Source of the DNA: Candidatus Omnitrophota bacterium
GTDB lineage: Bacteria > Omnitrophota > Gorgyraeia > Duberdicusellales > 4484-171
NCBI GenBank assembly: GCA_043820815.1
Contig: JBDRDJ010000008.1
Span: forward strand, 1 to 54,674
Direction: 5' to 3'
Length of the DNA: 54,674 bases
The notes under the pieces are model-generated. The model saw nothing but the letters and a program-made list of their open reading frames with translations, did not search any database and had not been told where the DNA came from. Of the stretch, positions 2,122-44,203 are shown piece after piece (position 1 is the first letter of the stretch; every line of letters begins with the position of its first letter). The position numbers and the translations under genes were made by a program.

Positions 2122-2150
2122 TTGACTAAATAAAAAAGAAATAGTGTAAT
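2122..2150 (+). promoter_or_regulatory. Sigma-70-type promoter of the HTH/pilus operon
   Basis: TTGACT (2122-2127), 17 bp, TGTAAT (2145-2150); SD AGGAG at 2203-2207 precedes the ATG at 2217. Confidence 0.55.
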
Positions 2151-2160
2151 GTTAGTATAG

Positions 2161-2210
2161 TCAGGCAATGTCAAGGCGTACCGAAGTGTACCAAGCACTA
2201 TCAGGAGTAG
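2161..2210 (+). repeat. Five imperfect 10-bp phased direct repeats (candidate operator)
   Basis: TCAGGCAATG/TCAAGGCGTA/CCGAAGTGTA/CCAAGCACTA/TCAGGAGTAG, lying between the -10 box and the start codon. Confidence 0.6.
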
Positions 2211-2216
2211 TATAAT

Positions 2217-2399
2217 ATGGTAAAGAAGTATTTTGGCGTGAATGATGTAGTCCAGAGGCTTGGTATTTCAAGGCAGACATTGCTAAGATATGAGAAAAGA
2301 GGGATTTTTCCAAGGCCAAAAAGGAACTGTGTAAATCACTGGAGAGAATATACCGATATAGAAGTAGACAGCCTAAAACAAATATTAGGCAGATTTTAA
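2217..2399 (+). CDS. Stand-alone MerR-like/Xis-like winged HTH protein (copy 1)
   Basis: 60 aa; V...LGISRQTLLRYEKRG...P.RN..NHWREY; no dimerisation or effector domain; good SD. Confidence 0.85.
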   Translation: MVKKYFGVNDVVQRLGISRQTLLRYEKRGIFPRPKRNCVNHWREYTDIEVDSLKQILGRF

Positions 2400-2422
2400 A
2401 TGAGGCAGCATCTTTTGCCGAG

Positions 2423-2442
2423 CCCTTCGGTAATACTCAGGG
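2423..2442. repeat. CCCTTCG...CTCAGGG REP-like element
   Basis: CCCTTCGGTAATACTCAGGG; 18/20 identical to 47674-47693; flanked by CTTTTGC/GCAAAAG. Confidence 0.6.
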
Positions 2443-2494
2443 TAAACTCCGCGAGAGCAAAAGTGCGTAGCCGAATTTAAAACAAAATTTCTTT

Positions 2495-2671
2495 ATGAAG
2501 TATTATAGTGCCCAAGAAGTTGCCCAGAAGCTCGGAATTTCAAAGCAGACTCTCCTGCGTTATGAGAAAAAAGGTATTTTTCCGCACCCTAAGCGTAATT
2601 TAGTAAATCACTGGAGAGAATATTCGGAAAAAGATCTGGAGAAGCTTAAAATAATTATTGGCAGAATATGA
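2495..2671 (+). CDS. Stand-alone MerR-like HTH protein (copy 2; missed by ORF track)
   Basis: Hand translation MKYYSAQEVAQKLGISKQTLLRYEKKGIFPHPKRNLVNHWREYSEKDLEKLKIIIGRI (58 aa); 36/57 aligned residues identical to copy 1; ATGA overlap with the gene at 2668. Confidence 0.9.
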   Translation: MKYYSAQEVAQKLGISKQTLLRYEKKGIFPHPKRNLVNHWREYSEKDLEKLKIIIGRI

Positions 2672-3096
2672 AGAAAGTTACATTAATTTTATTATTTCTG
2701 CTTATTATTTTTCTACTGATTGAATGCATTCTTAGAAAAAGTTTTATTCCGGCTTATTGTGAATCTTTTTTAAATAAGAAGGTTTCTTCGGGCACTACAG
2801 AAGCCGATAATTTGCCGGATAGAACAAATGTCAAAAGCGAAAGCTTAACGGCATTAAGAAACCCTTTTTTAACGGCCGAAGAGCAGAAAGTAACTAATGA
2901 GCGGGAAATTATTGATTATTTACCGATATCAGGTGTTTTCCAATCGCCCGGCCGTTCGTATGTTATTATCAGCGGCCGCATCCTTAAAGTAAACGATACG
3001 ATTGACGGTAAAGAGATAGTTTCTATTGATAAAGAAAAAGTTATACTTAGGGATTTGCAAGGCGAGGCGGAATATATATTATTTCTAAATAAATAA
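2668..3096 (+). CDS. PilP/GspC-like assembly protein
   Basis: N-terminal hydrophobic anchor, RNPF motif, beta-rich C-terminus (ISGVF....SYVIISGRILKVND.IDG); sits next to the secretin genes. Confidence 0.5.
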   Translation: MKKVTLILLFLLIIFLLIECILRKSFIPAYCESFLNKKVSSGTTEADNLPDRTNVKSESLTALRNPFLTAEEQKVTNEREIIDYLPISGVFQSPGRSYVIISGRILKVNDTIDGKEIVSIDKEKVILRDLQGEAEYILFLNK

Positions 3097-3098
3097 TT

Positions 3099-3953
3099 AT
3101 GCGCTGTTTTAGTAAACATTTAATTATTCCTTTATCTTTCTTGGCCTGCTTCTGTGTTTGTTTGATGGCCCAAGATATTAAAGAAAGTGAAAAACTTACA
3201 GAGGCACAATTAGAAAGCCAGAGCAATGACAAGGATTTAAAGAGCCAGGGCGGTGTTGAAACAAATTCATTTTCCCGGCAGGGAATAATAGCGATAAACC
3301 AGTCAGAAAAAGATGCGGCTTTGTTTTCAATCGAGCTCAGAGATGCGGAATTAGTCGATCTTTTCAGGGTATTGGCTCACGACTATAATCTTAATATTAT
3401 GGCCGATAAGGCCGTAGAAGGTAAAGTAACCGCGAGTTTAACCAATATTTCATTAAATGAGGCACTTCTGCGCATTGCCGATTTGCATAATTTAATCATA
3501 GAAGAACAGGGCAATGTTTTAGTTGTAAAGCCAAACCTGAAAACAAAAGTTTTTATATTAAAACATGTAGAAGCCAAGATATTACTTAATCAGAGTGTTT
3601 TTTCAAATCAAACACCATCGAATAGCGCTAATTTACAGGCATCATCTCCGGATTCATCAACAACCGGGCAAGCTCAGCAAGAGAAGAAAGAAGCAAATAT
3701 TTATGATCTTCTTTCTGATCAAGGTAAAGTTTTACTCGGCACTCAGCCAAACTCTCTTCTTGTGATTGACTACCCCGATAATTTAAAAAAGATCGATATT
3801 TACATTTCAACGATAGACAAAGGCATGGCGAGCAGAATATTTAAGCTTAAATATATAAGTGCTCAGGATATAGTAAAAAGCGGGCAGAAAAATACCGTTT
3901 CATCTGAAACCAAAGAGGTTACAGCCCAGAATATTTCCGGGCAGGATTATTAA
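3099..3953 (+). CDS. Secretin N-terminal-domain protein (STN/N0 plus N3-like), no barrel
   Basis: Signal peptide; FSIELRDAELVDLFRVLA...VEGKVTASLTNISLNEAL (N0/STN); N3-like segment; ends at 284 aa. Confidence 0.75.
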   Translation: MRCFSKHLIIPLSFLACFCVCLMAQDIKESEKLTEAQLESQSNDKDLKSQGGVETNSFSRQGIIAINQSEKDAALFSIELRDAELVDLFRVLAHDYNLNIMADKAVEGKVTASLTNISLNEALLRIADLHNLIIEEQGNVLVVKPNLKTKVFILKHVEAKILLNQSVFSNQTPSNSANLQASSPDSSTTGQAQQEKKEANIYDLLSDQGKVLLGTQPNSLLVIDYPDNLKKIDIYISTIDKGMASRIFKLKYISAQDIVKSGQKNTVSSETKEVTAQNISGQDY

Positions 3954-3956
3954 ATT

Positions 3957-5534
3957 ATGAAGCACACAGTTAAGGTTATATCTTTTTTTCTAATTTTAGT
4001 TTTATTTATTTATTTCTCCGGCTATGCAGGCGTTGCCTCGGACGTAAATGAGTTACTTTCAAGCCAGGGAAAAGTTCTTTTTGGCCAGGAACCCAATTCA
4101 ATTTTTGTGATTGACTATCCCGAAAATATAAAGCGAATTGACGATTACCTGGCAATGGTTGATACTCCGCCCCAGCAGGTTCTTATCGAAGCAAGGGTTG
4201 TTGAGGTCAAATTAGAATCAGAAAACGCTTTAGGTATTAACTGGACGGCCTTCAGCGATTCTCCTTTTTTAATAGGAGAGTATACGATAGGAGGGTCGAG
4301 CTCAACAAGCCCTATTGAACAAAACATAGATTACAAATCTACGGTTTATCCGCCCTTAAGCACAAGCGGAACACAAGAGGCCCCTTTTACCCTTACGATA
4401 TTCGATGAAAATATAAATGTTGTTCTTAGGGCATTGGCCAATTCTTATAACACAAATATCCTTTCAGCCCCCAGAATAACAACTGTTAATAACCGTGAAG
4501 CTGAAATCAAAATTATTCAGAAATTACCCTGGGCAGAGCCGGTGGTTGAGATGGTTGAAACAAGTATTGCGATAACATGGAATATTAATTTTGAAGAAGT
4601 AGGGATAATCCTAAGAGTTACCCCCACAATAACCGAAGACGGGCAAATTTCAATGGAGCTTCAGCCTGAAGTCAGCGAAAAGGTCAGTGATTACAGCCTA
4701 TCGGTTGTTCAGGGAACTACCGAGATTCCCTATACGGTTCCTGTTATTGACCGGCGCACCGCAGATACAAAAGTCGTTGTAGGCAACAGCCAGACTCTTA
4801 TTATCGGCGGCCTAATCAAGGAAAAACTAATAGAAGGTGAGACCAAGGTGCCCTTTTTAGGCGATATCCCGGGGTTAGGGTGGCTTTTTAAGAGTAAAAA
4901 AGATACAAAGGAAAAATCCGAGCTTTTAATTTTTGTATCTCCTACAATTATTACCCAGAAAGTTGTGAAAGAAATGCAAAGCAGCGAGGAATTGGATATT
5001 GGCAAGTGGTATATGGATGAGCGAAAAAAGAAAAGAAATGAACTGCTCGAGAAGATGGAAAACAAGGAAAGTGGCAGTATTGTCAGCGTTAGCAATGAGG
5101 AAGTTAGAAAGCAGGATTTATTGGATAATAAAAAAACACAAGCCAAACTTAAGAACGATAAAGAAATTTTACAGAAATATGAGGATGAGATACTCAAATT
5201 AAACTTAAGAGCCGAAGAAGCAAAAAAAGCATATGATACTCATATTGTAGAGTTAAAGAGGGAAATTGATAAAGAGAATTCTGCAAGAAAGGCCACTGAG
5301 AAAAACATCAAAGAATCTGAAGAAAAATCTCGTTTTGCCAAAGAGGCTTATGAGGCCAGGGTTAAGGATTTAGAGCGTAAAATTTCTCAAGAGATCCAAA
5401 CGCGTGAAGAATCAGAGAATCTGCTTTCTGAAATAAAGAAGAGTATTCTTCAAGGCCAGGCAGCTGCGCCGGTTGAAGATGCTGACAATATGGAAAGATC
5501 AGAAGAGGTAATAGATCAGAAGAAAAATAAATAA
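3957..5534 (+). CDS. Secretin (PilQ/GspD family) barrel protein with C-terminal coiled-coil extension
   Basis: QVLIEARVVEV, ILSAPRITTVNNREA.I, GIIL.VTP.I, IIGGLI, KVPFLGDIP.LGWLF, ELLIFVSPTI motifs; own signal sequence. Confidence 0.9.
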   Translation: MKHTVKVISFFLILVLFIYFSGYAGVASDVNELLSSQGKVLFGQEPNSIFVIDYPENIKRIDDYLAMVDTPPQQVLIEARVVEVKLESENALGINWTAFSDSPFLIGEYTIGGSSSTSPIEQNIDYKSTVYPPLSTSGTQEAPFTLTIFDENINVVLRALANSYNTNILSAPRITTVNNREAEIKIIQKLPWAEPVVEMVETSIAITWNINFEEVGIILRVTPTITEDGQISMELQPEVSEKVSDYSLSVVQGTTEIPYTVPVIDRRTADTKVVVGNSQTLIIGGLIKEKLIEGETKVPFLGDIPGLGWLFKSKKDTKEKSELLIFVSPTIITQKVVKEMQSSEELDIGKWYMDERKKKRNELLEKMENKESGSIVSVSNEEVRKQDLLDNKKTQAKLKNDKEILQKYEDEILKLNLRAEEAKKAYDTHIVELKREIDKENSARKATEKNIKESEEKSRFAKEAYEARVKDLERKISQEIQTREESENLLSEIKKSILQGQAAAPVEDADNMERSEEVIDQKKNK

Positions 5535-5561
5535 TGAAATTTTTTTAAGGAGAAAATCCCC

Positions 5562-7259
5562 ATGGTTCAGGAATCTAATGGCAGAAGATTAGGCCCTGAT
5601 AAGAAGATCGGAGATCTTCTTATTGAGCAGGGATTTGTAACTTCCCAGCAGTTGGTTGAGGCGTTAGAGGAACAGAAGGTAACAGGAGAAAAGCTTGGGC
5701 AGGTCTTCGTGCGAAAAGGGTGGGTTAGCGCTGAAGACTTAAGCCGTATTTTAGCAATGCAGACAGGCGTCAGCACATTTGACCTTTCCAATTATATTAT
5801 TGAACCGGATATTGTGTTGTTAATACCTCAAGAAGTTGCCTTGAAATATAAGGTGATACCTGTTTTTAAGACAGGAAATACTTTAACCGTAGCCAGTGCC
5901 GATCCGACTAATGTATTTGTAATAGACGAACTACAGCGTTTAACCGGCTGTATTATAGAGCCGGTATCGGCCGATGAGATGGCTGTGCGTAAGGCGCAGG
6001 ATCAGTATTACGGGCCAGGAGGAACTGTTAAGGAGCTTGTGGCTTCGATTGATAGGGATAAGCTTAAAGAAGGCGATAAAATGGGGGAAGATGCTCCCAT
6101 TGTAAGGCTCGTTAATACTCTAATAATAAAAGCCGTTCAGGCAAGTGCTTCAGACATACATATTGAGCCTGAAGAGAAGTATGTGGGCGTAAGGTACAGG
6201 ATTGACGGAATCCTGCACCACCAGGATTTTATTCCAAAGGATTTACAGCCGGCTATACTTTCGCGCATTAAGATAATGGCCGCTCTTGACATAGCCGAGA
6301 AAAGAATTCCTCAAGATGGGCGCATACTTATGAGAACAGGCAATAAAGATATTGATTTTCGTGTATCAACATGCCCTACGATTCACGGAGAGAATATGGT
6401 TTTAAGAATTCTTGACAGAAGTAATATGGTTTTAGGCCTTAATAATTTAGGCTTTTCCCCGGAAAACCTTAAATCCTTCGAAGAAATTATTTTACAGCCC
6501 TACGGAATAATTTTAGTAACCGGCCCCACGGGAAGCGGCAAAACCACAACTCTTTACTCTGCTCTTCAAAAGATAAATCGCGAAGACATAAATATAATGA
6601 CCGTAGAGGACCCGGTTGAGTATCATTTTCCCCAGATCAGGCAGGTTCAAGTTAACCCTAAGGCAGGGTTAGTTTTTGCTTCTGCTTTGCGTTCTTTCTT
6701 GCGGCAGGATCCCGATGTGATTATGGTCGGTGAAATCCGCGATGCAGAAACAGCGGAAATTGCAGTGCAGGCGGCATTAACAGGGCATTTAGTTTTATCG
6801 ACCCTTCATACGAATGATGCTCCGTCATCATTTACAAGGCTTATGGAAATGGGCATAGAACCGTTTTTGGTGTCAAGTTCATTGCTGGGAGTGCTTGCCC
6901 AGAGATTGCTAAGAAAAATTTGCCAAAAATGCAAGCAGGATTTTTATCCTTCGGAAGCTGTGATAGAAACTTTAGGGCTAAACGATAAAATAAAAGGGGC
7001 TATAAAATTAAGCCAAGGAAAAGGCTGTAAAATATGCAACAATACGGGTTATAGAGGGCGCATAGGAATTTATGAATTTCTTGAGGTAACACCTGTAATC
7101 CATGATTTGGTAATAAAGAAATCATCCGCAGATGAGATAAGAGAAATTGCCAAACAGCAGGGAATGATAATGCTCAGAGAAGCCGCGCTTGAGAAGCTTT
7201 TAAAGGGGGTAACTAGCCTTCAGGAAGTGATGCGGGTAACTCAGTCTACTGTAGAATAG
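5562..7259 (+). CDS. PilB/GspE-family assembly ATPase with MshEN-like N-terminus
   Basis: Walker A GPTGSGKT, ASDIHIEP, LRQDPDVIMVGEIRD, STLHTND, CxxC...CxxC zinc motif. Confidence 0.95.
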   Translation: MVQESNGRRLGPDKKIGDLLIEQGFVTSQQLVEALEEQKVTGEKLGQVFVRKGWVSAEDLSRILAMQTGVSTFDLSNYIIEPDIVLLIPQEVALKYKVIPVFKTGNTLTVASADPTNVFVIDELQRLTGCIIEPVSADEMAVRKAQDQYYGPGGTVKELVASIDRDKLKEGDKMGEDAPIVRLVNTLIIKAVQASASDIHIEPEEKYVGVRYRIDGILHHQDFIPKDLQPAILSRIKIMAALDIAEKRIPQDGRILMRTGNKDIDFRVSTCPTIHGENMVLRILDRSNMVLGLNNLGFSPENLKSFEEIILQPYGIILVTGPTGSGKTTTLYSALQKINREDINIMTVEDPVEYHFPQIRQVQVNPKAGLVFASALRSFLRQDPDVIMVGEIRDAETAEIAVQAALTGHLVLSTLHTNDAPSSFTRLMEMGIEPFLVSSSLLGVLAQRLLRKICQKCKQDFYPSEAVIETLGLNDKIKGAIKLSQGKGCKICNNTGYRGRIGIYEFLEVTPVIHDLVIKKSSADEIREIAKQQGMIMLREAALEKLLKGVTSLQEVMRVTQSTVE

Positions 7260-7309
7260 GTTTTGTTTGTTGCGTAAATTATTTCATTAATATATAAAGG
7301 AGGTGAGTG

Positions 7310-7453
7310 ATGGCAAGCTGGAAAAAGAATAAATTAGTCGGGTTAGTTGCAGGTATTATTATAATAATTGCAATAGCTTTAATTGCAAAAACAATTTTGT
7401 CAGGCCAAAACAGTAAAGTTCCTTCAGTCGAAGAGCAAATTAAAGGAATTTAA
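7310..7453 (+). CDS. Small single-pass membrane protein (47 aa; missed by ORF track)
   Basis: Strong SD AAGGAGGTGA (7297-7306); MASWKKNKLVGLVAGIIIIIAIALIAKTILSGQNSKVPSVEEQIKGI. Confidence 0.7.
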   Translation: MASWKKNKLVGLVAGIIIIIAIALIAKTILSGQNSKVPSVEEQIKGI

Positions 7454-7477
7454 GGTTTTAATAGGAGGTGCATTTTT

Positions 7478-7966
7478 ATGAAAGTCAAGGCTTTTACACT
7501 TATAGAACTTATGGTTGTTGTTGCGATAGTGGGAATGCTGGCGGCAGCATTGCTTCCTTCAATAAGCGGCATAATGGATAGAGCCCGTGTTGCAAAAGCA
7601 GAGGCAGAGGTGCGTTCTATTGCAAACGCTATCTTAGCTTTAAATCAGGATACGGGATTGTGGCCTGCCGGCAATGTTCAGGGTTCCGCGCTTAACGGTG
7701 CTAACATGGGCCTTATTTCCAGAAATGCCGCTCTGTGGCCGGCGACTTGGGACGGGCCTTATCTTGAGAAAAGTATAGGTAATGGAGGAGATGGCCTTGA
7801 TCCTTGGGGCCGGGCATATGTATATGATGGCGGGGAAGCTGGTTCCGGACAAACCTGTATTGCAAGCGTCGGCCCCGATGGGGTTATTGCTTCTTACAAT
7901 AGAGCTGATCTAACCGCACAGGGAGATGATATTATCGTTTATTTTAATCAGCGCAATCCCCGATAG
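7478..7966 (+). CDS. GspG-like major pseudopilin/pilin
   Basis: KA|FTLIE class III signal; W.GPYL, DPWG..YVY and S.GPDG motifs typical of GspG; SD GGAGG. Confidence 0.85.
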   Translation: MKVKAFTLIELMVVVAIVGMLAAALLPSISGIMDRARVAKAEAEVRSIANAILALNQDTGLWPAGNVQGSALNGANMGLISRNAALWPATWDGPYLEKSIGNGGDGLDPWGRAYVYDGGEAGSGQTCIASVGPDGVIASYNRADLTAQGDDIIVYFNQRNPR

Positions 7967-7975
7967 TTTATTAAG

Positions 7976-8518
7976 ATGCAAAACCTTTGCAATAAAAGGG
8001 AAATCCCTTGTATCAAAGTAAATGGTCTTTATGGGTTTACGCTTGTTGAAATGGTTGTTGTAATCGGTATTCTGGGGTTAATTTCTGCGGCAAGTATAAT
8101 ATCTTTTTGGCGCCTTGCTCCCAAAAGACTAGATGCCGAAGCCAGGATGGTTGTCGGAGATATATCCTGGGCTAGAGACATGAGCCTGGCCCGCCAAACT
8201 CAATATATTGTTAATTTCGATACAGCCGCCGATGAATATACTATTTACAACCAAAGCATTAACCCCGTAAATTTAATTTTACGCAAGAAGCTTCAAACCG
8301 ATATAGTTTCAATACAGCCTTCCCCGGAAAGTATAGTTTTTAATCCTCCCTTTGGAAACTCTCAGTCAAAACAAATTGATTTAAGTTTCCAAGGGTATTC
8401 CAAGGAAATTTATATCTTTGGCGATACCGGATATGTAAGGGCACAAGACTCACAGCTTGCGACTCCCAGTTTTTCCGGCCAATCCGGCGGTAAAGGACAA
8501 GCCAAAGGCCAGCGATAG
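7976..8518 (+). CDS. Minor pilin, GspH/FimT-like
   Basis: G|FTLVEMVVVI prepilin motif. Confidence 0.75.
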   Translation: MQNLCNKREIPCIKVNGLYGFTLVEMVVVIGILGLISAASIISFWRLAPKRLDAEARMVVGDISWARDMSLARQTQYIVNFDTAADEYTIYNQSINPVNLILRKKLQTDIVSIQPSPESIVFNPPFGNSQSKQIDLSFQGYSKEIYIFGDTGYVRAQDSQLATPSFSGQSGGKGQAKGQR

Positions 8519-8535
8519 AAAGAGAAAGAGGCGGT

Positions 8536-8907
8536 GTGAGAGTGGGCCAATCAAAAATGAACTTTAGCTTAATTGAAGTAAGCGTTTCGCTTTGTGTTTT
8601 AGTTTTAATTCTCGCCGGCCTATTCAGGGTTCTTTATCAGGGTTTTAATTCAGTAGATAAATCCAAGACAAAAACTATTGTATATGGCCTTATAAGAGAA
8701 AAGCTTGAAGAAAAGTGCGCCCAATATTGCTGGCCTCCCTTTTCAGAGCCGCGCCAATCCGTAAGCGGCTTTACAGGGCTTGAGCGACAAGTTATTACTA
8801 CACGTCCTTATCTGAGTTATAACGATTTAGCCCATATTCAAGTTACAGTCTGGTGGAATAACGGCACTCAATCGGAATCTTTAGAGACATTATGTGCTGA
8901 TTATTGA
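8536..8907 (+). CDS. Minor pilin, GspI/PilV-like
   Basis: N|FSLIEVSVSL (non-canonical residue at -1); C-terminal V.VTV.W strand; operon position. Confidence 0.6.
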   Translation: MRVGQSKMNFSLIEVSVSLCVLVLILAGLFRVLYQGFNSVDKSKTKTIVYGLIREKLEEKCAQYCWPPFSEPRQSVSGFTGLERQVITTRPYLSYNDLAHIQVTVWWNNGTQSESLETLCADY

Positions 8908-8964
8908 AATTTATCCATTCGCCTTAAAAGAAAACGGGTATGTAAGGATTAATGTTCCCCGCGC

Positions 8965-9546
8965 GTGAGCTTTAAGCCCATGATTATTAAAAAAGGATTT
9001 ACCCTGCTTGAGATAATGGTTGCACTTACGGTATTTACGCTTGTTATTTCTGCGGCCGGGTCTATATTTGTTTCGGTTGATAGAGCATACAAAAAACAAG
9101 TTGATTCGGTTGAGTTGATTCAGAATCTTCGCTGGGCATTAGAATATATGGCTAACGAAATAAGGTATTCCGCTGTATCTTCAAATCCCGGGTGGGCCAG
9201 CCTTGGGGTTATTGCTAACGGAAGGACACTTCGTTTTGGAATAGATACAAATAGTGATAATGACCCTGATACCTGGGTGGAATACAGCAGAGAATCTAAT
9301 ACGTTATCACGCAGATGGCGGGATCATCCGGCAGGTGGCGGCTGGGGGCCTTATCAGGAGATTGCTAATTATATTGTTGATAATCCTGACCTCTTAGACA
9401 ATTCAAACGGTTTTGGCCTCCCTGACGGAAGAGCCGACCCAATATTTATGCAGAGCGGAAACGATGATTTATTAACAATAGAGTTAACCGCGCAAAAGGA
9501 TAATCTGGTTTATACAAAAAGAGTAAGGGTAAAACCTCGAAACTGA
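8965..9546 (+). CDS. Minor pilin, GspJ/PilW-like
   Basis: KKG|FTLLEIMVAL; LE.MA.EIR motif. Confidence 0.75.
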   Translation: MSFKPMIIKKGFTLLEIMVALTVFTLVISAAGSIFVSVDRAYKKQVDSVELIQNLRWALEYMANEIRYSAVSSNPGWASLGVIANGRTLRFGIDTNSDNDPDTWVEYSRESNTLSRRWRDHPAGGGWGPYQEIANYIVDNPDLLDNSNGFGLPDGRADPIFMQSGNDDLLTIELTAQKDNLVYTKRVRVKPRN

Positions 9547-9552
9547 TTCACC

Positions 9553-9960
9553 ATGATAAAATCTCAAGCATTGTTATTTGTTTTGTTTTTACTTCTTTTG
9601 GCAGGTATTTTTATAGTTTCACTTTCGGGAATGTGGCAGTCAGAAATATTGTCACGCAGTGAAGAGAAATATTCAACAGCGGTTTTCTATCTTGCCCAGG
9701 GAGGAATCGAGAGGGCTAAAATTGAAGCAAAAAACGGCGTAGTTACGGCTCCGGCCTGGAGCGGCCCGTTTGTTTTAGGTACAGGCAGGTATTTTTTTTA
9801 TATTGAGGATATCGGATCCGGAGAAAGGCTTATTCGTTCAGCCGGCGAGATTTTAGATTCATCAGGCAACATAATAGCTCGAAGGCAAATACGCCAGGAA
9901 GTTGAATCTGCGGCAACCCCTGATCCCCGGATTAAAAGCTGGAGCTGGCGGCAGGAATAA
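9553..9960 (+). CDS. Minor pilin, PilX/GspK-like
   Basis: QA|LLFVL without Glu5; A.YLAQGGIERA motif typical of PilX N-termini. Confidence 0.65.
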   Translation: MIKSQALLFVLFLLLLAGIFIVSLSGMWQSEILSRSEEKYSTAVFYLAQGGIERAKIEAKNGVVTAPAWSGPFVLGTGRYFFYIEDIGSGERLIRSAGEILDSSGNIIARRQIRQEVESAATPDPRIKSWSWRQE

Positions 9961-9996
9961 CCTAACAAAGATTTTTCGTCTAACGTTAACGTAAAT

Positions 9997-10118
9997 AAAT
10001 CAAAAATCAAATATCAAAAATCAAAATGACAATGTAAAAATCAAAATTAAAATATTTAAATCTAAACTTTTTGAATTTTAATTTGTCATTTTGATATTTA
10101 CATTTTGATTTTTAATTT
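9997..10118. repeat. Heptamer-built (AAAATCA) long hairpin element
   Basis: Arms 9997-10046 and about 10068-10118 pair at 41/50 positions; the left arm recurs at 54431-54470. Confidence 0.8.
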
Positions 10119-10162
10119 AAAAACGGGTATCGCCCTTATAATAATAAATCCAGAGGTACTAC

Positions 10163-11371
10163 ATGCCCCAATATAAGTATACTGCAAGGGATAGCAAAGG
10201 GAAAATCATTCGCGGTGTTGTTGAGGCGGTCAGCGAAGCTGATTTGGCAGAAATGATTTCTCAATCAGATAGATATTTGACGGGATTTAAGGCCATGCCC
10301 GAGGAATCACCTAAGTCTAAGGTTAAGCCTTCTTGGATGAAGCCAAAAGAAACCCTGCAGTTTACTATTCATTTGGCCACCTTAGTCGATTCGGGCCTTC
10401 CGCTTCTTGATGGTTTAAGAGATTTAGCTAAAGAGGCGCAGAATGAGAGAGTTCAGCAGGTCATTGACAATATCCGGTATCATGTGGAAAGCGGCAGTTC
10501 TTTAAAGGAAGCAATATCCCGCCACCCAAGGACATTCTCCAAACTATACGAAGCCTTGGTCGATACCGGTGAAAGTACAGGTAAACTTGCACAGACTCTC
10601 AACAGCTTAGCAAATCTTCTTGAATGGCAATTAGACCTAAGAGTGCGCATCAAAGAAGCCTCGACATATCCGGCAATTTTATTTTTTGTTATGGTTTCGG
10701 TGGTTTGCCTTATGATAATTCATGTAATACCTATTTTTGAGCCTATATTTACCCAGGCAGGAGTAGCCCTGCCGGCAGCAACCCAGATTATTTTAGGTAT
10801 AAGTCATTTTTTACGTTCTTTCTGGTATCTTATCCTTGCTGTAATAGTTATGATTCTTCTAGGGTATAAATTCTGGAAATTAACCGAAAGAGGCCGTTAT
10901 ATTATCGATAGTATAAGGTTGAGAATACCTGTTTTTGGCGAGCTGATTCGAAAATTATCGCTGTCTCGTTTCACCCAGACATTTGCCTTAAGTTTTAAGG
11001 CAGGAGTGAACCTCCTAAACTGTTTGGATATTTCCAGCAAAACCTGTGCCAACGCACGAATTGAAAATGCAATTCTAAAAGCAAGAAGTTCTGTAAATGT
11101 GGGAGAGAAACTCGCTGCTTCATTTAAAGCTACAGGTGAGTTTCCTGTGATGGTTGTGCGCATGATAGAGGTGGGGGAACAATCCGGGGCTTTAACCCAG
11201 ACTCTATTTAAAGCAGCAAGTTTTTATGATAAAGAAGTAGCTTCCGACATAAAAAGAATATTCTCCATCATTGAGCCGGCAATGATTGTTATAATGGGTG
11301 TTGTGGTCGGGGGTATTTCTTTAGCTATTTTTCTACCCCTGTTTAAAATGGCGAGTATTATCGCCGACTAA
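10163..11371 (+). CDS. PilC/GspF inner-membrane platform protein
   Basis: MPQYKYTARDSKG, GESTGKL, TYPAIL, MIEVGEQSGAL, IIEPAMIV motifs; two F domains. Confidence 0.95.
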   Translation: MPQYKYTARDSKGKIIRGVVEAVSEADLAEMISQSDRYLTGFKAMPEESPKSKVKPSWMKPKETLQFTIHLATLVDSGLPLLDGLRDLAKEAQNERVQQVIDNIRYHVESGSSLKEAISRHPRTFSKLYEALVDTGESTGKLAQTLNSLANLLEWQLDLRVRIKEASTYPAILFFVMVSVVCLMIIHVIPIFEPIFTQAGVALPAATQIILGISHFLRSFWYLILAVIVMILLGYKFWKLTERGRYIIDSIRLRIPVFGELIRKLSLSRFTQTFALSFKAGVNLLNCLDISSKTCANARIENAILKARSSVNVGEKLAASFKATGEFPVMVVRMIEVGEQSGALTQTLFKAASFYDKEVASDIKRIFSIIEPAMIVIMGVVVGGISLAIFLPLFKMASIIAD

Positions 11372-11387
11372 TGAATAATTTAAATAA

Positions 11388-11409
11388 TAGAAGCGGATAT
11401 CCGCTTCTA
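11388..11409. repeat. REP-like perfect palindrome
   Basis: TAGAAGCGGATATCCGCTTCTA, perfect 22 bp. Confidence 0.75.
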
Positions 11410-11426
11410 CAACAAATAATAATCAT

Positions 11427-13235
11427 ATGGCTGATTTAATTGGAATTGATATAGGCGTTCGATTTGTAAGAGGAGTTGTACTTTCGCAACGGCCAAAACA
11501 ATCAATCTCTGATATTTTCTTTTTTCCTACCCCTTTTTCAAACGTTTCATCTGCCCGGGAAATTGATGCGAAACAATTCTTCGATAAAATTACATCGTAT
11601 GTGCCTTTAGAATTCTTAAAAAAAGCGCAAATAGGAGTTAATATACTTTCGTCCTTGGTTACGGTCAGCGTTGTTTATTTGCCAAAGATGAGCAAGAAGG
11701 AGTTAGATATTGCAGTTATTGCAGAAGCGCGCAGAAAAATGATTCCGCCTCCGGGGCCAAACAGTGTTTTTGAATATTCTATTTTAAGCGAGGTGGCTAT
11801 AGATAATGTTGTCAGGTATGAAATTCTTGTAATTAAAACAGAGCGCCATTTCATAGAGGAAGTTTTAAGAATATTTAAACCGTTTGCGGATATTAGCCCT
11901 TTCTTTATAGGCCCTACATGTTATGCGATTATAAATTCACTCGCTTACGACCCTCAAGCGCAGCAAAAAGATACAGCAATTATTGACCTTGGTTATGATT
12001 CAATAGATATCGCTATTGCCAAAAAAGGAAAATTATATTTCTACCGCAACATTAACTTTGGATTAAAGAATATTATTTCTAATATAGCCGGATCTCTTGC
12101 TATAGACTTTCAAGAAGCCGAAAAGGTTATTAATGATATAGGGGTTCCTAAAGTCGATATTGATCTGTCGGATAAAGTGAGAGTTGCCGAAGAAATAATG
12201 CGCCAGAAGTATGAACTCCCCCAATACGAAGCCGGCCATAAAGATGTAAATGTTCTTGAGCTGAGAGTTTTTTGGAACACACAAATAGAAAGAGCTATAC
12301 ACGAAATAAGAAGGACGCTTCATTATTATAGTGAGCAGACAGGAAAAAGAAGAGTTGAAGATGTTCTTTTCTTAGGAGAAGGCTCTTTAATACAGGGGTA
12401 TGTGCCTTCTATTATCAAAGAAATCGGCGGTAACAGCCGGCTATACAATCCATTTGAAGCGGTAAATGTCACTTTAGAAGGCCAGAAGTCTAAAATATTG
12501 CAAGATAGCATTTCAGTATTTGCGCCCGCATTTTCCATCGCTAAAAGCATGACAACCGGTAAGAAGATGCAAGGAGAGATTAATTTCTTACCTTCCGGGC
12601 TTAAGAAACGTAATCAAAGAATTCAGAATCAAATATTGCTTACAGGTTTCGGTATTTTTATGGTTTGTTTTATTTTTCTGGCTTGGTTTAAAGTTTTTGT
12701 TAACAATTATGCCCTCAAAGCTTCTTTAGAAGGCAAGCGGGCCGAAATAGAAAAAGCTAAAGGAATAATTTCAACGCTCGATGGGCTTAAATCAGAAAGA
12801 GAAAAAATAGATATTCGAACCAGCAAGGTTGGTGAAATCGTTAAGCAGAGAGTCAATATATCGCAAGCGCTTAATCAGGTAGCCAGCCTTATGCCCGGTG
12901 ATGTTTTCTTAGAAACGTTAACTATATCCAAAGGCGCAAGCTCAACCGTTTTATCCGGCAATACGGCTCAAGTAAGCCGGGGAGATATTTCCACGGGTAA
13001 GTCTTATGCTATATCGCTTACGGCCAGATGTTTTTCTGATTACGAAACCGCCGTTCGACTTGCCGATGAATTTAGGAAACGGCTGGAGGATGATAATAAT
13101 TTCGTTAATGTAAATTTGCTTTATCCTGACATTGAAAAGATTTCGCCTGTTATTGAAAACCAGAAAGAAATTTCCCTTACTCAGCCTAAACTAAGAGAGT
13201 TTAATTTAAGTGCAGAGCTTGTAATTAGAGATTAA
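11427..13235 (+). CDS. PilM-PilN fusion (GspL-like architecture)
   Basis: Actin-like GIDIG and AIIDLGY motifs, EIRRTL.YY, INFLP, then a TM helix, a coiled coil and the PilN-like LMPGDVFLETLTI. Confidence 0.8.
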   Translation: MADLIGIDIGVRFVRGVVLSQRPKQSISDIFFFPTPFSNVSSAREIDAKQFFDKITSYVPLEFLKKAQIGVNILSSLVTVSVVYLPKMSKKELDIAVIAEARRKMIPPPGPNSVFEYSILSEVAIDNVVRYEILVIKTERHFIEEVLRIFKPFADISPFFIGPTCYAIINSLAYDPQAQQKDTAIIDLGYDSIDIAIAKKGKLYFYRNINFGLKNIISNIAGSLAIDFQEAEKVINDIGVPKVDIDLSDKVRVAEEIMRQKYELPQYEAGHKDVNVLELRVFWNTQIERAIHEIRRTLHYYSEQTGKRRVEDVLFLGEGSLIQGYVPSIIKEIGGNSRLYNPFEAVNVTLEGQKSKILQDSISVFAPAFSIAKSMTTGKKMQGEINFLPSGLKKRNQRIQNQILLTGFGIFMVCFIFLAWFKVFVNNYALKASLEGKRAEIEKAKGIISTLDGLKSEREKIDIRTSKVGEIVKQRVNISQALNQVASLMPGDVFLETLTISKGASSTVLSGNTAQVSRGDISTGKSYAISLTARCFSDYETAVRLADEFRKRLEDDNNFVNVNLLYPDIEKISPVIENQKEISLTQPKLREFNLSAELVIRD

Positions 13236-13245
13236 AATAATTTTT

Positions 13246-13905
13246 ATGGAAGGTACGCGTTTTTTAAAACTCCTCATCGTAATATTCTTTTTGTCATTTT
13301 TTTATTTCTTTCTTGCCCAGTTAAAGGTTAATACCAATTTAAAGAAAGAATTAAGGCAGGCAAGCCAAAAGATTAATAATGCAAAAGAAGCCAGACAAGA
13401 GCTGGATAAACTAAAGACAGAAATTGCAGCTATTGAAGAGACAGCAGGCCGCATAGAGGAAAGAATTCCGACAAATGAAGATAAACCCCTTAAATTAATA
13501 AGAGAGATAACTCATTTAGGCAGCCGGTTAGGCGCCAGGAATATGGAGTTCATTTTCGAAAATGAAACTAACGCACAGCCTTCCATGGACAGCCTTAAAC
13601 AAAATAATAATAACAGCCTATATCAGGATGGAAGTTATGCTTCATCAGGCAGCGAATATGCCGAATCCGCTTCATCCCGATTTCCATCGGAGGCTATTAA
13701 CGGGGCCCAGCAAAGAATAAGGCCAATACTTATTAAAATTAATTTTGAAAGCCAGTACCACGCTTTAGTCAATTTTGTAAAAGAACTTCTTAAAACACAA
13801 CGGCTTGTATTTATTGAATATGTCAATATCGAACGCATGCCCGGTGCTTATCCCCGGCAGAAAGTGAGTATGACTCTAGTCACTTATACATTCGTTTCTC
13901 AATAG
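13246..13905 (+). CDS. PilO/GspM-like protein
   Basis: N-terminal TM, coiled coil, I.I.FES.YHALVNFV..L....RLV.IE.V.I ferredoxin-like pattern. Confidence 0.75.
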   Translation: MEGTRFLKLLIVIFFLSFFYFFLAQLKVNTNLKKELRQASQKINNAKEARQELDKLKTEIAAIEETAGRIEERIPTNEDKPLKLIREITHLGSRLGARNMEFIFENETNAQPSMDSLKQNNNNSLYQDGSYASSGSEYAESASSRFPSEAINGAQQRIRPILIKINFESQYHALVNFVKELLKTQRLVFIEYVNIERMPGAYPRQKVSMTLVTYTFVSQ

Positions 13906-37108: not shown

Positions 37109-37226
37109 TTCTTGTGTAACACGTCTGATTTTAATGACTAAATCCGAATTATGAATGGCCCTGCATGCCGGCAGTGTAATTCATTGCTAAGTTTTTAGCC
37201 GAAAATAAAATTAGGAGGCAGCAGAA

Positions 37227-38360: not shown

Positions 38361-38398
38361 GCAGAAATCAGGCACCAAAAGTGTGTAATCTATATAAA

Positions 38399-39148: not shown

Positions 39149-39160
39149 GGGAGGTGTGTA

Positions 39161-39565: not shown

Positions 39566-39568
39566 TTC

Positions 39569-39598
39569 TTGACTAATGATACTTAAATGATATCATTA
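39569..39598 (+). promoter_or_regulatory. Promoter with overlapping 8-9-8 inverted-repeat operator
   Basis: TTGACT, 16 bp, TATCAT, 6 bp, ATG; TAATGATA-N9-TATCATTA (39574-39598) spans the spacer and -10. Confidence 0.65.
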
Positions 39599-39602
39599 TA
39601 AG

Positions 39603-40052: not shown

Positions 40053-41712
40053 GCAGACCGCTGCTTCAAAAAACTGCACGGTAAAAGGAGTTTGTGGAAA
40101 ATCACCCGAGACCGCGGCGTTACAGGATTTGCTCATCCATAGTTTAAAAGGAATTGCGTATTTTGTTAATCGGGCTAGAGAGTTAGGAATAAAGGATAGC
40201 GATTGCGGCCGTTTTGTGGTTGAGGCGTTGTTTTCTACCGTTACCAATGTTAATTTTGATTCCCACAAGATAGCCGGACTCATAAGAGAAGCATATCTTA
40301 TAAAAGAAAATATCAAATCTATCTTTATTAATATTAATGGGTGCAAAGAAAAGCATGGTAGTGCCTTAGATGTTTCTGATTGCCATGCGGCTTGTTTTAA
40401 ACCGGCTGAATCATATGAAGGCCTTCTTGAACAGGCAAAGGCATCAAGAATCAATGCAGCCGGGACTGCGAATGAGGATATAGCGAGCTTAAAAGAACTT
40501 CTTCTTTATGGCCTAAAGGGAATGGCTGCTTACGCTGACCATGCTTTGATTCTTGGCGAAGTTGACGAAGATGTCATGTCATTTTTCCACAAGGCATTAG
40601 ATGCTTTATGCGATGACAGCCTTAGCATAGATGATTTATTCGCTCTTAATATGGAATTTGGCAAGGTTAATTTAAAATGCCTTGAGATTCTTGATTTTGC
40701 GCATACAAAGCATTTTGGAAATCCCGCTCCGAGAAATGTTTCTCTTGGCGTAAAGAGGGGGCCCGCGATTATAGTTTCAGGGCATGATTTATATGACTTA
40801 GAACAGCTTCTCAAGCAGACTCAAGGAACAGGAGTTAATGTTTATACTCATGGCGAGATGCTTCCCGCGCACGGTTATCCAGGGTTAAATAAATACGAAC
40901 ATTTGGCAGGACATTTCGGGAGTGCGTGGCAGAATCAGCAGGCAGAGTTTGATTCAATTAAGGCGGTTATCCTTATGACAACTAATTGTATACAGGAGCC
41001 GAAGCAGTCTTATAAAGACAGGATTTTTACAACCGGTCTTGTTGCCTGGCCCGGAGTTAATCATATCGAATCAGAGATATCAGGCAGCAAGGATTTCAGC
41101 CAATTGATTGAAAAGGCGAAAGAACTGGGGGGGGTTGAGAATGACCAGATTGAGAAAACAATAACAGTCGGTTTTTCGCACCATGCTGTTTTGTCAAATG
41201 CCGGTAAAATCGTTGAGGCCGTAAAAGATGGCAAAATTAAGCATTTCTTTCTTATCGGAGGGTGCGACGGCGCAAAACCTGGCAGAAACTATTATACCGA
41301 CTTTGCAAAGATCGTCCCGCCGGATTGTGTTATTCTTACGCTTGCCTGCGGAAAATTCAGGTTTAACCGCTTGGATTTCGGCGACATTTCCGGTATCCCG
41401 CGCTTGCTTGACTGCGGCCAGTGTAACGATGCTTATTCCGCGGTAAAGATTGTACTGGCTTTAGCGGAAGCATTTAACTGCAGCGTTAATGATTTGCCTC
41501 TTTCTTTGATTATTTCTTGGTATGAACAAAAAGCCGTTTGTATTTTGTTGAGCTTGCTGTCTCTGGGTATTAAGGATATAAGGCTTGGGCCGACTTTGCC
41601 TGCTTTTGTGAGCCCGAATATTTTAAAAGTTTTGGTTGAAAAATTTGCGATAAGGCCGGTTACAACACCCGACAAGGATTTAGGTGAAATTTTAAAAGGA
41701 GAGTTGGCATGA
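40021..41712 (+). CDS. hcp: Hybrid cluster protein (hydroxylamine reductase)
   Basis: [10 protein letters not shown]-x5-CGK (Cx2Cx8Cx5C), [41 protein letters not shown]; ATG 40021. Confidence 0.97.
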
Positions 41713-41870
41713 AGTATAAATGTATAGTTTGCGGTTATATATATGACCCGGAAGCCGGCGACCCTGACTCAGGAATTGATGCAGGAACGGCTTTTGAGCA
41801 GATACCGGATACCTGGGTTTGTCCTGTTTGCGGAGTAGATAAGACTCAGTTTGAACCTGTTGATGAATAG
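41709..41870 (+). CDS. Rubredoxin (missed by ORF track)
   Basis: [53 protein letters not shown] (53 aa); ATGA overlap with the hcp stop. Confidence 0.97.
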
Positions 41871-41885
41871 ACAAGGCCAAACACA

Positions 41886-41971
41886 TTTTCGGTCTTCGGT
41901 ATTCGGTATTCGGTTTTCGTATAAAATTTATCGCGAACACCAAACACCGAAAACCGAGAACCGAATACCGA
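41886..41971. repeat. ACCGAA-heptamer hairpin element (inverted copy of 29481-29547)
   Basis: TTCGGTA heptamers followed by complementary ACCGAA heptamers. Confidence 0.8.
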
Positions 41972-41977
41972 GGAAGC

Positions 41978-43189
41978 ATGGTTAAAGTAGCAGACAGCAT
42001 ATACTGGACAGGATACATTGACTGGGAGTTACGTAATTTCCACGGTTATTCGACTCCCGGCGGTTCTACATATAATGCCTACCTTATAAAAGATGAAAAA
42101 CCCGCATTAATCGATACTGTCAAGTATTATGGTTTCGATGAGATGCTGAGGCGCATAAAACAGGTTATTGACCCCTTAGAAATTAAATACATAATTTCCA
42201 ACCATACCGAGATGGATCATTCAGGAAGCATTGGAAAGCTTCTTGCAATATGTCCAAAGGCAGAGGTTGTATGTTCACCTAAGGGCGAACAGGGGTTAAA
42301 GAAACACTTCGACAGCTCGGGAGCCGGAAACTGGAAGTTTAAGGCAGTAAATACGGGAGATTCTCTTTCAATAGGAAAAAGGACTTTGAGTTTTTACCTA
42401 ACCCCGATGGTTCACTGGCCTGATTCAATGGTTACTTATTCAAAAGATGATAAAATACTTTTTTCAAATGATGCTTTTGGCCAGCATATGGCAAGCCCTG
42501 AAAGGTTTGTTGATGAAGCGGGCTTAGATATTGTTTTAAAGGAAGCAGCCAAATATTATGCAAACATTGTGATGCCTTACGGGGTTCAGGCACTCAAAGC
42601 CATAGAAGCCATAAAACAATTACAAATCGACATGATTTGCCCCTCACACGGGCTCATATGGAGGAGAAAATCCGATATAACTGCAATAATTTCTAAGTAT
42701 ATTGCATGGGCAAACTATGAATCGCAAAACCGCGCTGTTATTGTTTATGATACAATGTGGCATTCAACCGAAAAAATTGCCAATAAGCTTTTTGAGCTGT
42801 TAGATAAAGAGGGGTTACCGGTTAAAATTATGAACCTGAAAAATGATGACCCTTCAGACATTGTGGCCGAAGTTATGTTCTCAAAAGTTGTTATTGTAGG
42901 CAGCCCCATACTCAATAACAGAGTTTTTCCAAAGATTGCGGGTTTTCTCGGCCACCTTAAAGGATTAAAACCTAAAAATAGATTTGGCTTTACCTTTGGC
43001 TCTTATGGCTGGTCAAAGGGGGGATTTTCGGAACTTGAGGAATCTTTGGAAGAGTCAGGGATAGAACTCATCGATAATGGGGCATACTTTCAATACGTGC
43101 CCAGCGAGCCTGACTTAAATTCTTTGGCAGGAATTGTTTCAAAAGTGAAAAATATTTTAACAGGAGATAAAAGCCGTGCCGGAGTATAG
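41978..43189 (+). CDS. fprA: Flavodiiron protein (FprA/ROO/NorV-like, class A)
   Basis: R.FHGY....G.TYNAYL, NHTEMDHSGS, MVHWPDSM, DAFGQH, PSHG; flavodoxin domain YDTMWHSTE and FGSYGWS. Confidence 0.93.
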   Translation: MVKVADSIYWTGYIDWELRNFHGYSTPGGSTYNAYLIKDEKPALIDTVKYYGFDEMLRRIKQVIDPLEIKYIISNHTEMDHSGSIGKLLAICPKAEVVCSPKGEQGLKKHFDSSGAGNWKFKAVNTGDSLSIGKRTLSFYLTPMVHWPDSMVTYSKDDKILFSNDAFGQHMASPERFVDEAGLDIVLKEAAKYYANIVMPYGVQALKAIEAIKQLQIDMICPSHGLIWRRKSDITAIISKYIAWANYESQNRAVIVYDTMWHSTEKIANKLFELLDKEGLPVKIMNLKNDDPSDIVAEVMFSKVVIVGSPILNNRVFPKIAGFLGHLKGLKPKNRFGFTFGSYGWSKGGFSELEESLEESGIELIDNGAYFQYVPSEPDLNSLAGIVSKVKNILTGDKSRAGV

Positions 43190-43664
43190 CCCTCAGGAAA
43201 TATTAAAGATTGCCATAAATGTTGAAGAGAACGGTCTCAGGTTCTATGAAACTCTGGAAAAACGGGCTGTTATAGATTGCGTAAAAGAAGTCTGGAAGTA
43301 TTTAAAGGAGCAAGAATCTGCGCATAAAAGGGTATTCAAAGAGATGCTTGATTGTGCCCCGGACTATATAACTTACGAATACTCACCCGGAGAATACAAT
43401 GCTTACCTTAGGGCAATATCTTCAAGCTTTATTTTTATTCCGGAGCTGATTAAAAAGAAAACCGAAGAAGTGGCTTATTCCGATAAAGATGCCGTTGATT
43501 TTGGAATACAAATTGAGAAAGATTCAATCCTTGTTTATTCGGCATTGAAGGAATACATAAAGCTTGATAAGCAATCTGCATTAAATAAAGTGATTGAGGA
43601 AGAAAAGAACCATTTAATCAGGTTAACTCTTTTTAAAGAGGGATTGATAGATATTAATTCTTGA
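43176..43664 (+). CDS. Ferritin-like/rubrerythrin-family di-iron protein
   Basis: AI.VEENG..FY, QE..H, IQIEKDS..VY, EEEKNH. Confidence 0.88.
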   Translation: MPEYSPQEILKIAINVEENGLRFYETLEKRAVIDCVKEVWKYLKEQESAHKRVFKEMLDCAPDYITYEYSPGEYNAYLRAISSSFIFIPELIKKKTEEVAYSDKDAVDFGIQIEKDSILVYSALKEYIKLDKQSALNKVIEEEKNHLIRLTLFKEGLIDINS

Positions 43665-43810
43665 GAGTGAGAACGGCAGAAGATGAATATGGATGTTAAA
43701 ATTTAATAAGTGTATGACCCGGCACCTTCCTTATCCGCATACCCCATAAAATAAGAAGTTTTTGTTTAGTAAAATGGACATAAGTGTCTAACTCTCTAAA
43801 CGCTTATGCC

Positions 43811-43841
43811 TCTGTAAATCTTGCCGTCTCATTCTGTAAAT
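43811..43841 (+). promoter_or_regulatory. Candidate enhancer (UAS) direct repeat
   Basis: TCTGTAAAT at 43811 and 43833 (22-bp period), about 80-105 bp upstream of the sigma-54 box. Confidence 0.5.
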
Positions 43842-43917
43842 TTGCTCAAAAATAGTTATTTATTCTTCTCTCTGTCACGCAAGGGGTTACAGCATATATA
43901 TATTTAATTAGAATTCT

Positions 43918-43933
43918 TGGCACGAAAAATGCT
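43918..43933 (+). promoter_or_regulatory. Sigma-54 (-24/-12) promoter
   Basis: TGGCACGAAAAATGCT versus consensus TGGCACG-N4-TTGCW, one mismatch. Confidence 0.75.
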
Positions 43934-44017
43934 ATATTAGTGTCCTGGACATACTTAGACATTAAAAATCCAAACAAAAGTTAATTCTTACATGAGTAAA
44001 TAAGTAAGGGGGACTAT

Positions 44018-44203
44018 ATGAGGGCCGATAAGAAAATGACAATAACCGAAGTTGCCGAAGAAATTGGAGTGGTTCCCAAAACAATTCAAAGGTGGGAAAA
44101 GTCAGGAAAAGTTAAGAGAGCCAAAAGAGACTGGCGCAACTGGAGAATCTATACGTATAAAGAGGTCGAACAGTTAAAATACTTTAGAAATAACGTTTAC
44201 TAA
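44018..44203 (+). CDS. Stand-alone MerR-like HTH protein (copy 3)
   Basis: 61 aa; TI.EVAEEIGV..KTI.RWEK.G....KR....WR.Y; SD GGGGG. Confidence 0.85.
   Translation: MRADKKMTITEVAEEIGVVPKTIQRWEKSGKVKRAKRDWRNWRIYTYKEVEQLKYFRNNVY

Follow-up and report, generated by a model that had tools for sequence, protein, structure and literature searches.

Predicted operon-specific autoregulators of MerR fold at the head of a pilus-type operon and an exopolysaccharide operon in an Omnitrophota genome

The stretch of DNA considered here (the window) is contig JBDRDJ010000008.1 of the Candidatus Omnitrophota bacterium assembly GCA_043820815.1, 54,674 nucleotides (nt) in length, which forms contig C8 of a 1.57 Mb metagenome-assembled genome (MAG) that is 77% complete (genome G000). 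It encodes three stand-alone proteins of 58–61 amino acids (AA) on the plus strand, HTH_A (2217-2399; 60 AA), HTH_B (2495-2671; 58 AA) and HTH_C (44018-44203; 61 AA). The first two stand ahead of an operon resembling a type II secretion system or type IV pilus (T2SS/T4P) cluster, the third ahead of an exopolysaccharide (EPS) locus, and the leaders of both operons carry short phased repeats on which, we propose, these proteins may act.

All three are single-domain proteins of the MerR winged helix-turn-helix (wHTH) type, with matches to Pfam MerR_1 of 31.9 (HTH_A), 41.8 (HTH_B) and 44.2 bits (HTH_C) that span the full protein length and lie over the cut-off of 21.6 bits, in agreement with a preliminary description of this DNA that had pointed out three MerR-like open reading frames (ORFs) at 2217, 2495 and 44018. 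HTH_A and HTH_B share 63% identity and HTH_B and HTH_C 40%, and the recognition helices differ (SKQT in HTH_A and HTH_B versus VPKT in HTH_C). AlphaFold models of HTH_B and HTH_C (predicted local distance difference test, pLDDT, 90.8 and 89.0) have the topology beta-a1-a2-wing-a3, with the chain ending after helix 3; the dimerisation coiled coil and the effector region of classical MerR proteins are absent, as the proteins stop at about residue 58-61. The whole-length Pfam match and the models uphold the earlier view of a MerR-like wHTH without a dimerisation helix.

In Foldseek comparisons, HTH_B and HTH_C matched the DNA-binding domains of classical MerR proteins with template modelling (TM) scores of 0.75-0.84 and a root-mean-square deviation (rmsd) of 1.0-1.9, RacA was matched by both, with TM 0.77-0.80 for HTH_C, and BldC (6ama/6amk) was matched with target-normalised TM scores of 0.67-0.72 and an rmsd of 1.9-2.5, the identity to BldC in the structural alignment being 23-25% for HTH_B and 38-40% for HTH_C. 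Classical MerR and RacA domains thus superpose as well as BldC or better, and the excisionase RdfS is also among the matches. The curated BldC subfamily model NF033787 (cut-off 77 bits) gave 27.2 bits for HTH_C and no match for HTH_A and HTH_B, and the excisionase model TIGR01764 (cut-off 28.8 bits) gave 17.3 bits for HTH_B and 16.6 bits for HTH_C. Since these cut-offs are not reached, the proteins fall outside both curated families; judged by the models, they are BldC-like in architecture and lie outside the curated BldC subfamily. The likeness to BldC that had been suggested earlier therefore extends to the fold, which superposes on BldC and RdfS, and stops short of subfamily membership. Public annotation lists such genes as 'MerR family transcriptional regulator' or as hypothetical.

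The leader of HTH_A contains a -35 element, TTGACT (2122-2127, plus strand), of a predicted promoter for HTH_A and the T2SS operon. The sequence cTTGACa is kept in orthologous leaders, standing at a constant distance ahead of the repeat array in 31 leaders of the T2SS/T4P clade. The array itself (2155-2207, plus strand) comprises about five degenerate direct-repeat units of the type (G)TATCArG, 10-11 bp apart (GTATAGTCAGG, CAATGTCAAGG, CGTACCGAAG, TGTACCAAG and CACTATCAGG), and occupies the whole span from the promoter to the ribosome-binding site. The motifs quoted in the preliminary description, TAGTCAGG and AATGTCAAGG, are found exactly where it had placed them, at 2158-2165 and 2167-2176. 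With a position weight matrix (PWM) of the A/B motif built without the window's own site (leave-one-out), position 2155 ranks first in the 1.57 Mb genome with a score of 14.3, and the window array, whose PWM sites lie 11, 20 and 10 bp apart, is the sole four-site chain in the whole genome. The next-best clusters, at C13:31659 and C12:71567, both lie inside coding regions and were rejected as chance. Orthologous A/B leaders carry three to five copies of (G)TATCArG, spaced mostly by exactly 10 bp, and in several species the array begins within the promoter spacer.

The window array lies in the presumed transcribed leader and has AGG/GGA-like words, which would suit a reading in which the repeats function at the level of the 5' leader RNA or serve another factor (e.g. 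a CsrA-like one), the HTH genes being passengers or Xis relics. We consider this very improbable: many orthologous arrays start inside the promoter spacer, upstream of any transcript, and an Rfam scan of the window found nothing. A tRNA scan of the window was empty as well. CsrA-type RNA sites were rejected specifically, as GGA is not conserved in the motif and the arrays reach upstream of the -10.

Downstream, HTH_B ends in a stop codon that shares the ATGA at 2668 with the start of the next gene, an arrangement also present at 6 of the 12 orthologous loci checked, and HTH_B is predicted to be translationally coupled to that gene. The operon that follows (2668-13905, plus strand; assigned by Pfam, with gene order kept in relatives) begins with a 142-AA membrane protein, a secretin N-domain protein, a secretin and a GspE with an MshEN domain, and further encodes five pseudopilin-like proteins, GspF, a PilM-like and a PilO-like protein. 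The first four genes lie directly 3' of every A/B orthologue with readable surroundings (at least 12 genomes), while closer A/B paralogues lead other pilus-like clusters, arranged as HTH-GspE-GspF, HTH-PilM...secretin or HTH...giant secretin. A distant 62-AA HTH_17 (excisionase-type) protein is encoded at C27:25434-25622, 3 nt ahead of a second secretin-GspE-GspF-GspG cluster, the other secretin operon of this genome having a leader gene; no obvious repeat array was seen in its leader.

Between HTH_A and HTH_B lies a dispersed hairpin element (2400-2494, plus strand) resembling a repetitive extragenic palindrome (REP) or a miniature inverted-repeat transposable element (MITE), apparently inserted there. 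It has a 97% identical 66-nt copy at C29:41313-41378 and partial copies at more than eight loci, over which its 22-nt core recurs, including window positions 47674-47693; its fold energy is -26.4 kcal/mol (z = -2.06), and the tandem HTH pair of genome G014 is without the hairpin spacer. As a separate observation, the MshEN domain is borne by the GspE-type ATPase at 5562-7259. The MshEN domain of MshE binds c-di-GMP (cyclic diguanylate), which by analogy suggests that this secretion or pilus machine may be subject to post-translational control.

The EPS leader has a predicted promoter of the sigma-54 type, TGGCAC-N5-ATGCT (43918-43933, plus strand), with the -24 GG and -12 GC at consensus spacing. 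It is kept in orthologues: such a promoter is present in the leaders of 7/7 close orthologues and of 19/26 across the phylum, and a looser pattern was found at about 60 of 80 species loci (the best 80 of 383 loci in a C-clade scan with one genome per species, of which 77 were evaluable). The genome encodes RpoN (on contig C10) and, at C13:34557, an NtrC-type sigma-54-dependent response regulator. Overlapping the predicted start site is an operator-like element, TGTCC-T-GGACA-N5-AGACA (43941-43963, plus strand), within which the minus strand of 43944-43963 reads as two 10-bp direct repeats, AATGTCTAAG then TATGTCCAGG, again the very motifs and positions reported earlier. Its repeats are kept in orthologous leaders. 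In all seven C leaders, GGCA-N8-TGCT is followed 28-46 bp on by two rGACA exactly 10 bp apart, usually with an inverted TGTC ahead of the pair. Repeat conservation, which the preliminary description had left to comparison with orthologues, thus holds for both leader types.

As a composite pattern, the sigma-54 promoter followed by GGACA repeats has seven matches in the 41 related genomes of our comparison set, against none for a reversed control pattern. Six of the seven are HTH_C leaders, and the seventh lies at the end of contig C1 of the present genome (C1:4118-4195), where a sigma-54 promoter, TTGGCAC-N5-GTGCT, precedes four GGACA repeats at 10-bp spacing. This site is at the very end of a 4.2-kb contig and its downstream gene is lost at the contig break; the end of C1 was sought by exact match in metagenome contigs and was not found there. 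A TGTCC-N5-TGTCC pair also lies 81 bp upstream of smc on contig C32, the count of such pairs being within chance.

Six of six C orthologues (52-66% identity) lie directly ahead of Wza-Wzz-ExeA-kinase genes with no GxxExxY gene between. The window has at this junction a GxxExxY/PD-(D/E)XK cassette (44242-44674, plus strand; ORF 44271-44642; TIGR04256, 130 bits), whose gene is flanked by inverted repeats of 20 nt (44260-44279 and 44638-44657). Because the cassette is missing from all six orthologous HTH_C-Wza junctions and has these inverted-repeat bounds, it looks like an insertion into the EPS operon leader. The EPS locus proper (44722-54454, plus strand; Pfam) appears to be of the XrtA/PEP-CTERM type, its best NCBIfam matches being pepcterm_* models, and encodes a Wza-like exporter, a chain-length determinant (Wzz), an ExeA-like ATPase and a tyrosine autokinase, followed by PGM, a nucleotidyltransferase, a deacetylase and a FemAB-like protein. 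The pepcterm export, chain-length, ATPase and tyrosine-kinase models scored 96/180, 253/279, 301/324 and 158/231 bits, respectively, all under the equivalog cut-offs. An exosortase over the TIGR02602 cut-off is encoded on another contig. At C13:23700-36000, genes for an XrtA-like exosortase, a GAF sensor kinase and a sigma-54-dependent response regulator are clustered, along with three sigma-54-like promoters ahead of genes for 247-273 AA proteins, which are probably PEP-CTERM substrates. Among the 77 evaluable C-clade loci (from the best 80 of 383), Wza was the first or second downstream gene, or was fused to the HTH, in 65, among them loci of an anammox planctomycete and of a Planctomycetota contig 6 Mb long.

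The three proteins belong to a large family. A homologue is carried by 29 of the 41 related genomes, and a profile of all family clades run on 251 Omnitrophota genomes matched 221, with one to five copies each. Among 107 sampled members with readable context, 38 head T2SS/T4P-like clusters, 27 EPS loci and 12 smc, 13 lie with serine/tyrosine recombinases, 16 are in other or truncated contexts and 1 is at a contig edge. In the tree, HTH_C falls in an EPS clade (support 98/94) and HTH_A in a T2SS/T4P clade; a sister SMC clade (99/99) and integrase clades are also separated, and context follows the protein tree (13 label changes vs 56.8 in shuffles). Placement is therefore not random: the A/B clade goes with T2SS/T4P-like operons and the C clade with EPS operons. 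The notion that such genes head surface-structure operons, as proposed earlier, holds for these two groups and is not exclusive, in view of the smc and integrase contexts.

Integrase linkage had been raised as an objection to any such regulatory role. It is real for other clades (the 13 of 107), and this true linkage in distant relatives would also suit the view of the HTH genes as Xis relics or passengers. For HTH_A, HTH_B and HTH_C, no recombinase or integrase was found near the genes in the window or near their orthologues; this, together with synteny kept across the phylum and a repeat word that varies with the HTH clade, argues against that view.

The repeats themselves were assessed by a motif-free, exact-4-mer autocorrelation of leaders, with 228 leaders as controls. 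At lag 10 the values were 4.9 for T2SS/T4P, 6.0 for SMC and 1.8 for EPS leaders, vs 0.69 in the controls (Mann-Whitney p=2.7e-18, family leaders vs controls), with a sharp lag-10 peak, and one at lag 20 too, that the controls do not have. An enrichment test returned a different repeat word for each clade, TATCA, GGACA and TACAA/CAAAC, in parallel to the differences in the recognition helix; in two smaller clades the words ACATAAC and TATACTTTAATA were read by eye. Across the family the operators have a 10-bp period and two to six units, and the arrays overlap the promoter spacer, the -10 or the start site. That repeat word and recognition helix vary together from clade to clade is our chief reason for thinking that the repeats are read by the HTH proteins themselves.

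Two further groups deserve mention. The smc-heading sister clade (L051, L075, L088, L090, L094-L096, L098, L102, L108 and L113) is nearly confined to a single family within the same class, and its leaders combine a near-consensus TTGACA-17-TGnTATACT promoter with a 10-bp-phased ACAAAC array. An EPS subclade with the helix GISPKT (leaders L099, L115, L119 and L121) has no GGACA repeats, and its leaders appear to carry short inverted repeats, e.g. ATCAA-N3-TTGAT.

The preliminary description had brought the three genes together in one circuit linking the pilus and EPS operons, and a form of this idea would have both leaders bound by all three proteins, with pilus and EPS expression coordinated in the same or in opposite directions. 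The operator words are indeed related on opposite strands (TATCAAGG vs TGTCCAGG, 6/8 bases), the A/B PWM has one moderate match of 9.2 bits in the C leader, and the motif ATGTCNARG is enriched in the window (7 vs 2.3 expected), with three of the seven copies in the two leaders. Yet the A/B and C clades are largely found in different genomes, and both occur in only 3 of the approximately 21 related genomes having either (G000, G001 and G032). Neither operator type is at the other's leader, as the A/B-type array is absent at the EPS leader and the GGACA composite absent at the pilus leader; the recognition helices (SKQT vs VPKT) and operator words (TATCA vs GGACA) differ; and by the tree each clade has been bound to one operon type since ancient times. 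We regard such cross-regulation as quite improbable, and the comparison does not support the linking circuit. Because the clades rarely co-occur, their helices differ and their arrays are limited to their own leaders, the pilus and EPS systems look like parallel, private modules.

From these arrangements we consider it probable that HTH_A/B and HTH_C act as BldC-type autoregulators (most likely autorepressors), each dedicated to its own operon, and would bind the repeats on their own promoters. A bare MerR-fold wHTH, with neither dimerisation helix nor sensor, would be made as the first gene product of its own operon, and we infer that it would bind, as a head-to-tail multimer, the clade-specific repeats, spaced by about 10 bp, that cover its own promoter and leader. 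For the T2SS/T4P-like operon the site would be the array 2155-2207, which extends from the sigma-70 promoter as far as the ribosome-binding site; for the EPS operon it would be the three half-sites of 43941-43963 on the sigma-54 start site. Occupancy would most likely block transcription, because the arrays sit on the core promoter, start site and leader of their own operon. Each envelope machine would in this way receive its own negative feedback, atop whatever activates the promoter, and at the EPS operon that activator would be NtrC/PrsR-like. The predicted target of each protein appears to be its own promoter only; in the genome-wide PWM search, the A/B-type array was found solely at its own leader.

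Several observations weigh against this proposal. The window's own arrays are degenerate and, taken alone, not significant: the autocorrelation values of its two leaders (4 and 2) are under the control 95th percentile of 5, and the PWM score of 14.3 does not stand above the maxima of shuffled genomes (14.4-15.3), so that significance derives from the conservation of the repeats in orthologous leaders and not from the window alone. The -10 of the A promoter is ambiguous, being either TGTAAT at 2145-2150 (17-nt spacer) or TAATGT (19 nt), and the TTGACT promoter was missed by a generic sigma-70 scan, as its -10 has no A at position 2. The geometry is unlike that of BldC, with a period of 10 bp instead of 9 bp and, at the C site, one half-site inverted; palindromes appear to be used in one EPS subclade. 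Among the six secretin loci and two Wza loci of this genome, a leader gene stands at only two and one, respectively. A protein with no sensor offers no obvious input signal. Finally, the sign of regulation is uncertain, as BldC can activate as well as repress.

The uncertainty in sign gives some room to a reading of these proteins as architectural activators or anti-silencers, in which the multimer bends or opens an AT-rich promoter and creates positive feedback and on/off heterogeneity. BldC distorts DNA, and some of its targets are activated and others repressed (PMC5859096, PMC6428758). Xis and related recombination directionality factors (RDFs) are architectural proteins, and the A promoter may be weak in its -10 or have a spacer that, at 19 nt, is too long. 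The arrays, however, are located where repressor sites usually are, at the -10 and start site or downstream of them. At sigma-54 promoters, helpful bending sites are located upstream of -24 and not at +1. The C operator is at the start site, not upstream of -24 where bending would help, and the near-consensus promoter of the SMC clade needs no activator. On balance we find activation unlikely, and autorepression remains the reading that we favour.

Fused forms of the family raise a more speculative matter. In about seven species of one EPS subclade (L103, L125, L130/L170, L160, L203, L218 and L220), the HTH is fused in frame to Wza, giving proteins of 324-356 AA in which the signal-like hydrophobic segment of the exporter becomes internal. 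Unless Wza has an internal start as well, such a fusion would tether a DNA-binding domain to the membrane. At L077:1998-2651, a 217-AA protein consists of a GspG-like pseudopilin whose prepilin leader is directly replaced by a mini-MerR domain (...IIGRA|FTLIELIMV). It is conceivable, and in our view doubtful, that in Omnitrophota and some Planctomycetota the mini-MerR fold serves generally as a governor of envelope and chromosome machines, encoded by their first gene and with an output coupled to export. The free form found here would be translationally coupled to the first membrane component, and the fused forms would place the HTH ahead of the signal-like segment of Wza or of a pseudopilin (L077, GRA|FTLIEL), so that one regulator would be released or sequestered for each exported subunit that is processed or inserted into the membrane. 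Were this the case, transcription would report how much of the machine is being assembled.

Omnitrophota are uncultured nanobacteria with many secretin/pilus systems, and these and their surface polymers are thought to mediate contact with host or prey. To our knowledge, nothing has been known of how these systems and polymers are controlled, and a full-text literature search gave no description of a mini-MerR gene as the first gene of pilus or EPS operons, in line with the preliminary description, whose author knew of none. The present analysis provides a regulator family with operators predicted base by base, for two operons here and for hundreds of species. BldC-type DNA binding has so far come from one Streptomyces developmental regulator and phage proteins; if our proposal is correct, it has been reused widely as a modular, operon-private feedback device, including at a sigma-54 promoter. 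We anticipate that the natural protein-operator pairs (TATCA, GGACA, ACAAAC, ACATAAC and others) could reveal a recognition code of sensor-less MerR proteins.

A small regulator as the first gene of a surface operon is familiar from UpxY/UpxZ of Bacteroides capsule loci and from PapB/PapI of pilus operons. Those regulators have unrelated folds and mechanisms (NusG-like antitermination and an Lrp/Dam switch, respectively) and a documented cross-talk between loci; such cross-talk, in contrast, is not supported for HTH_A, HTH_B and HTH_C. Classical MerR proteins (MerR, CueR, CadR and HiNmlR) provide, with their N-terminal DNA-binding domains, the best sequence and fold matches, but possess the helix-5 coiled coil and the sensor that the present proteins lack. 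Their palindromic operator within a 19-20 bp spacer between -35 and -10 is not seen at A/B or C: at A/B, direct repeats extend into the leader from the spacer or -10, and the C operator is downstream of the sigma-54 -12 element.

Xis/RDF proteins (RdfS, PDB 8DGL, PMC11963761; TIGR01764) belong to the same superfamily and are likewise small wHTH proteins, which form oligomers on phased direct repeats, and the distant Omnitrophota clades of the mini-MerR family adjoin serine/tyrosine recombinases. HTH_A, HTH_B and HTH_C, unlike these, have no integrase or att context, score under the TIGR01764 cut-off and are vertically conserved at chromosomal operons for envelope machinery. Gp36 of phage D29 is a single-domain MerR-family protein that oligomerises weakly and represses downstream genes through direct repeats (PMC12266134); it differs in its phage origin, in its GC-rich repeats and in that it does not autoregulate envelope machinery from the leading position of an operon.

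The closest parallel in design is BldC of Streptomyces (PDB 6AMA, 6AMK; PMC5859096), which has about 60-70 AA and consists of a MerR-like wHTH only, with neither coiled coil nor effector domain. It binds 9-bp direct repeats head-to-tail and in variable number, e.g. CAATTCGGACAATTCGGACA (PMC5859096), and rows of direct repeats about one helical turn apart, variable in number, are likewise what we predict here; the GGAC-containing unit of HTH_C, moreover, resembles AATTCGGAC of BldC. BldC, however, is a pleiotropic developmental regulator with many targets, whereas the HTH proteins are first genes with one operon each, and one of them, HTH_C, is linked to a sigma-54 promoter.

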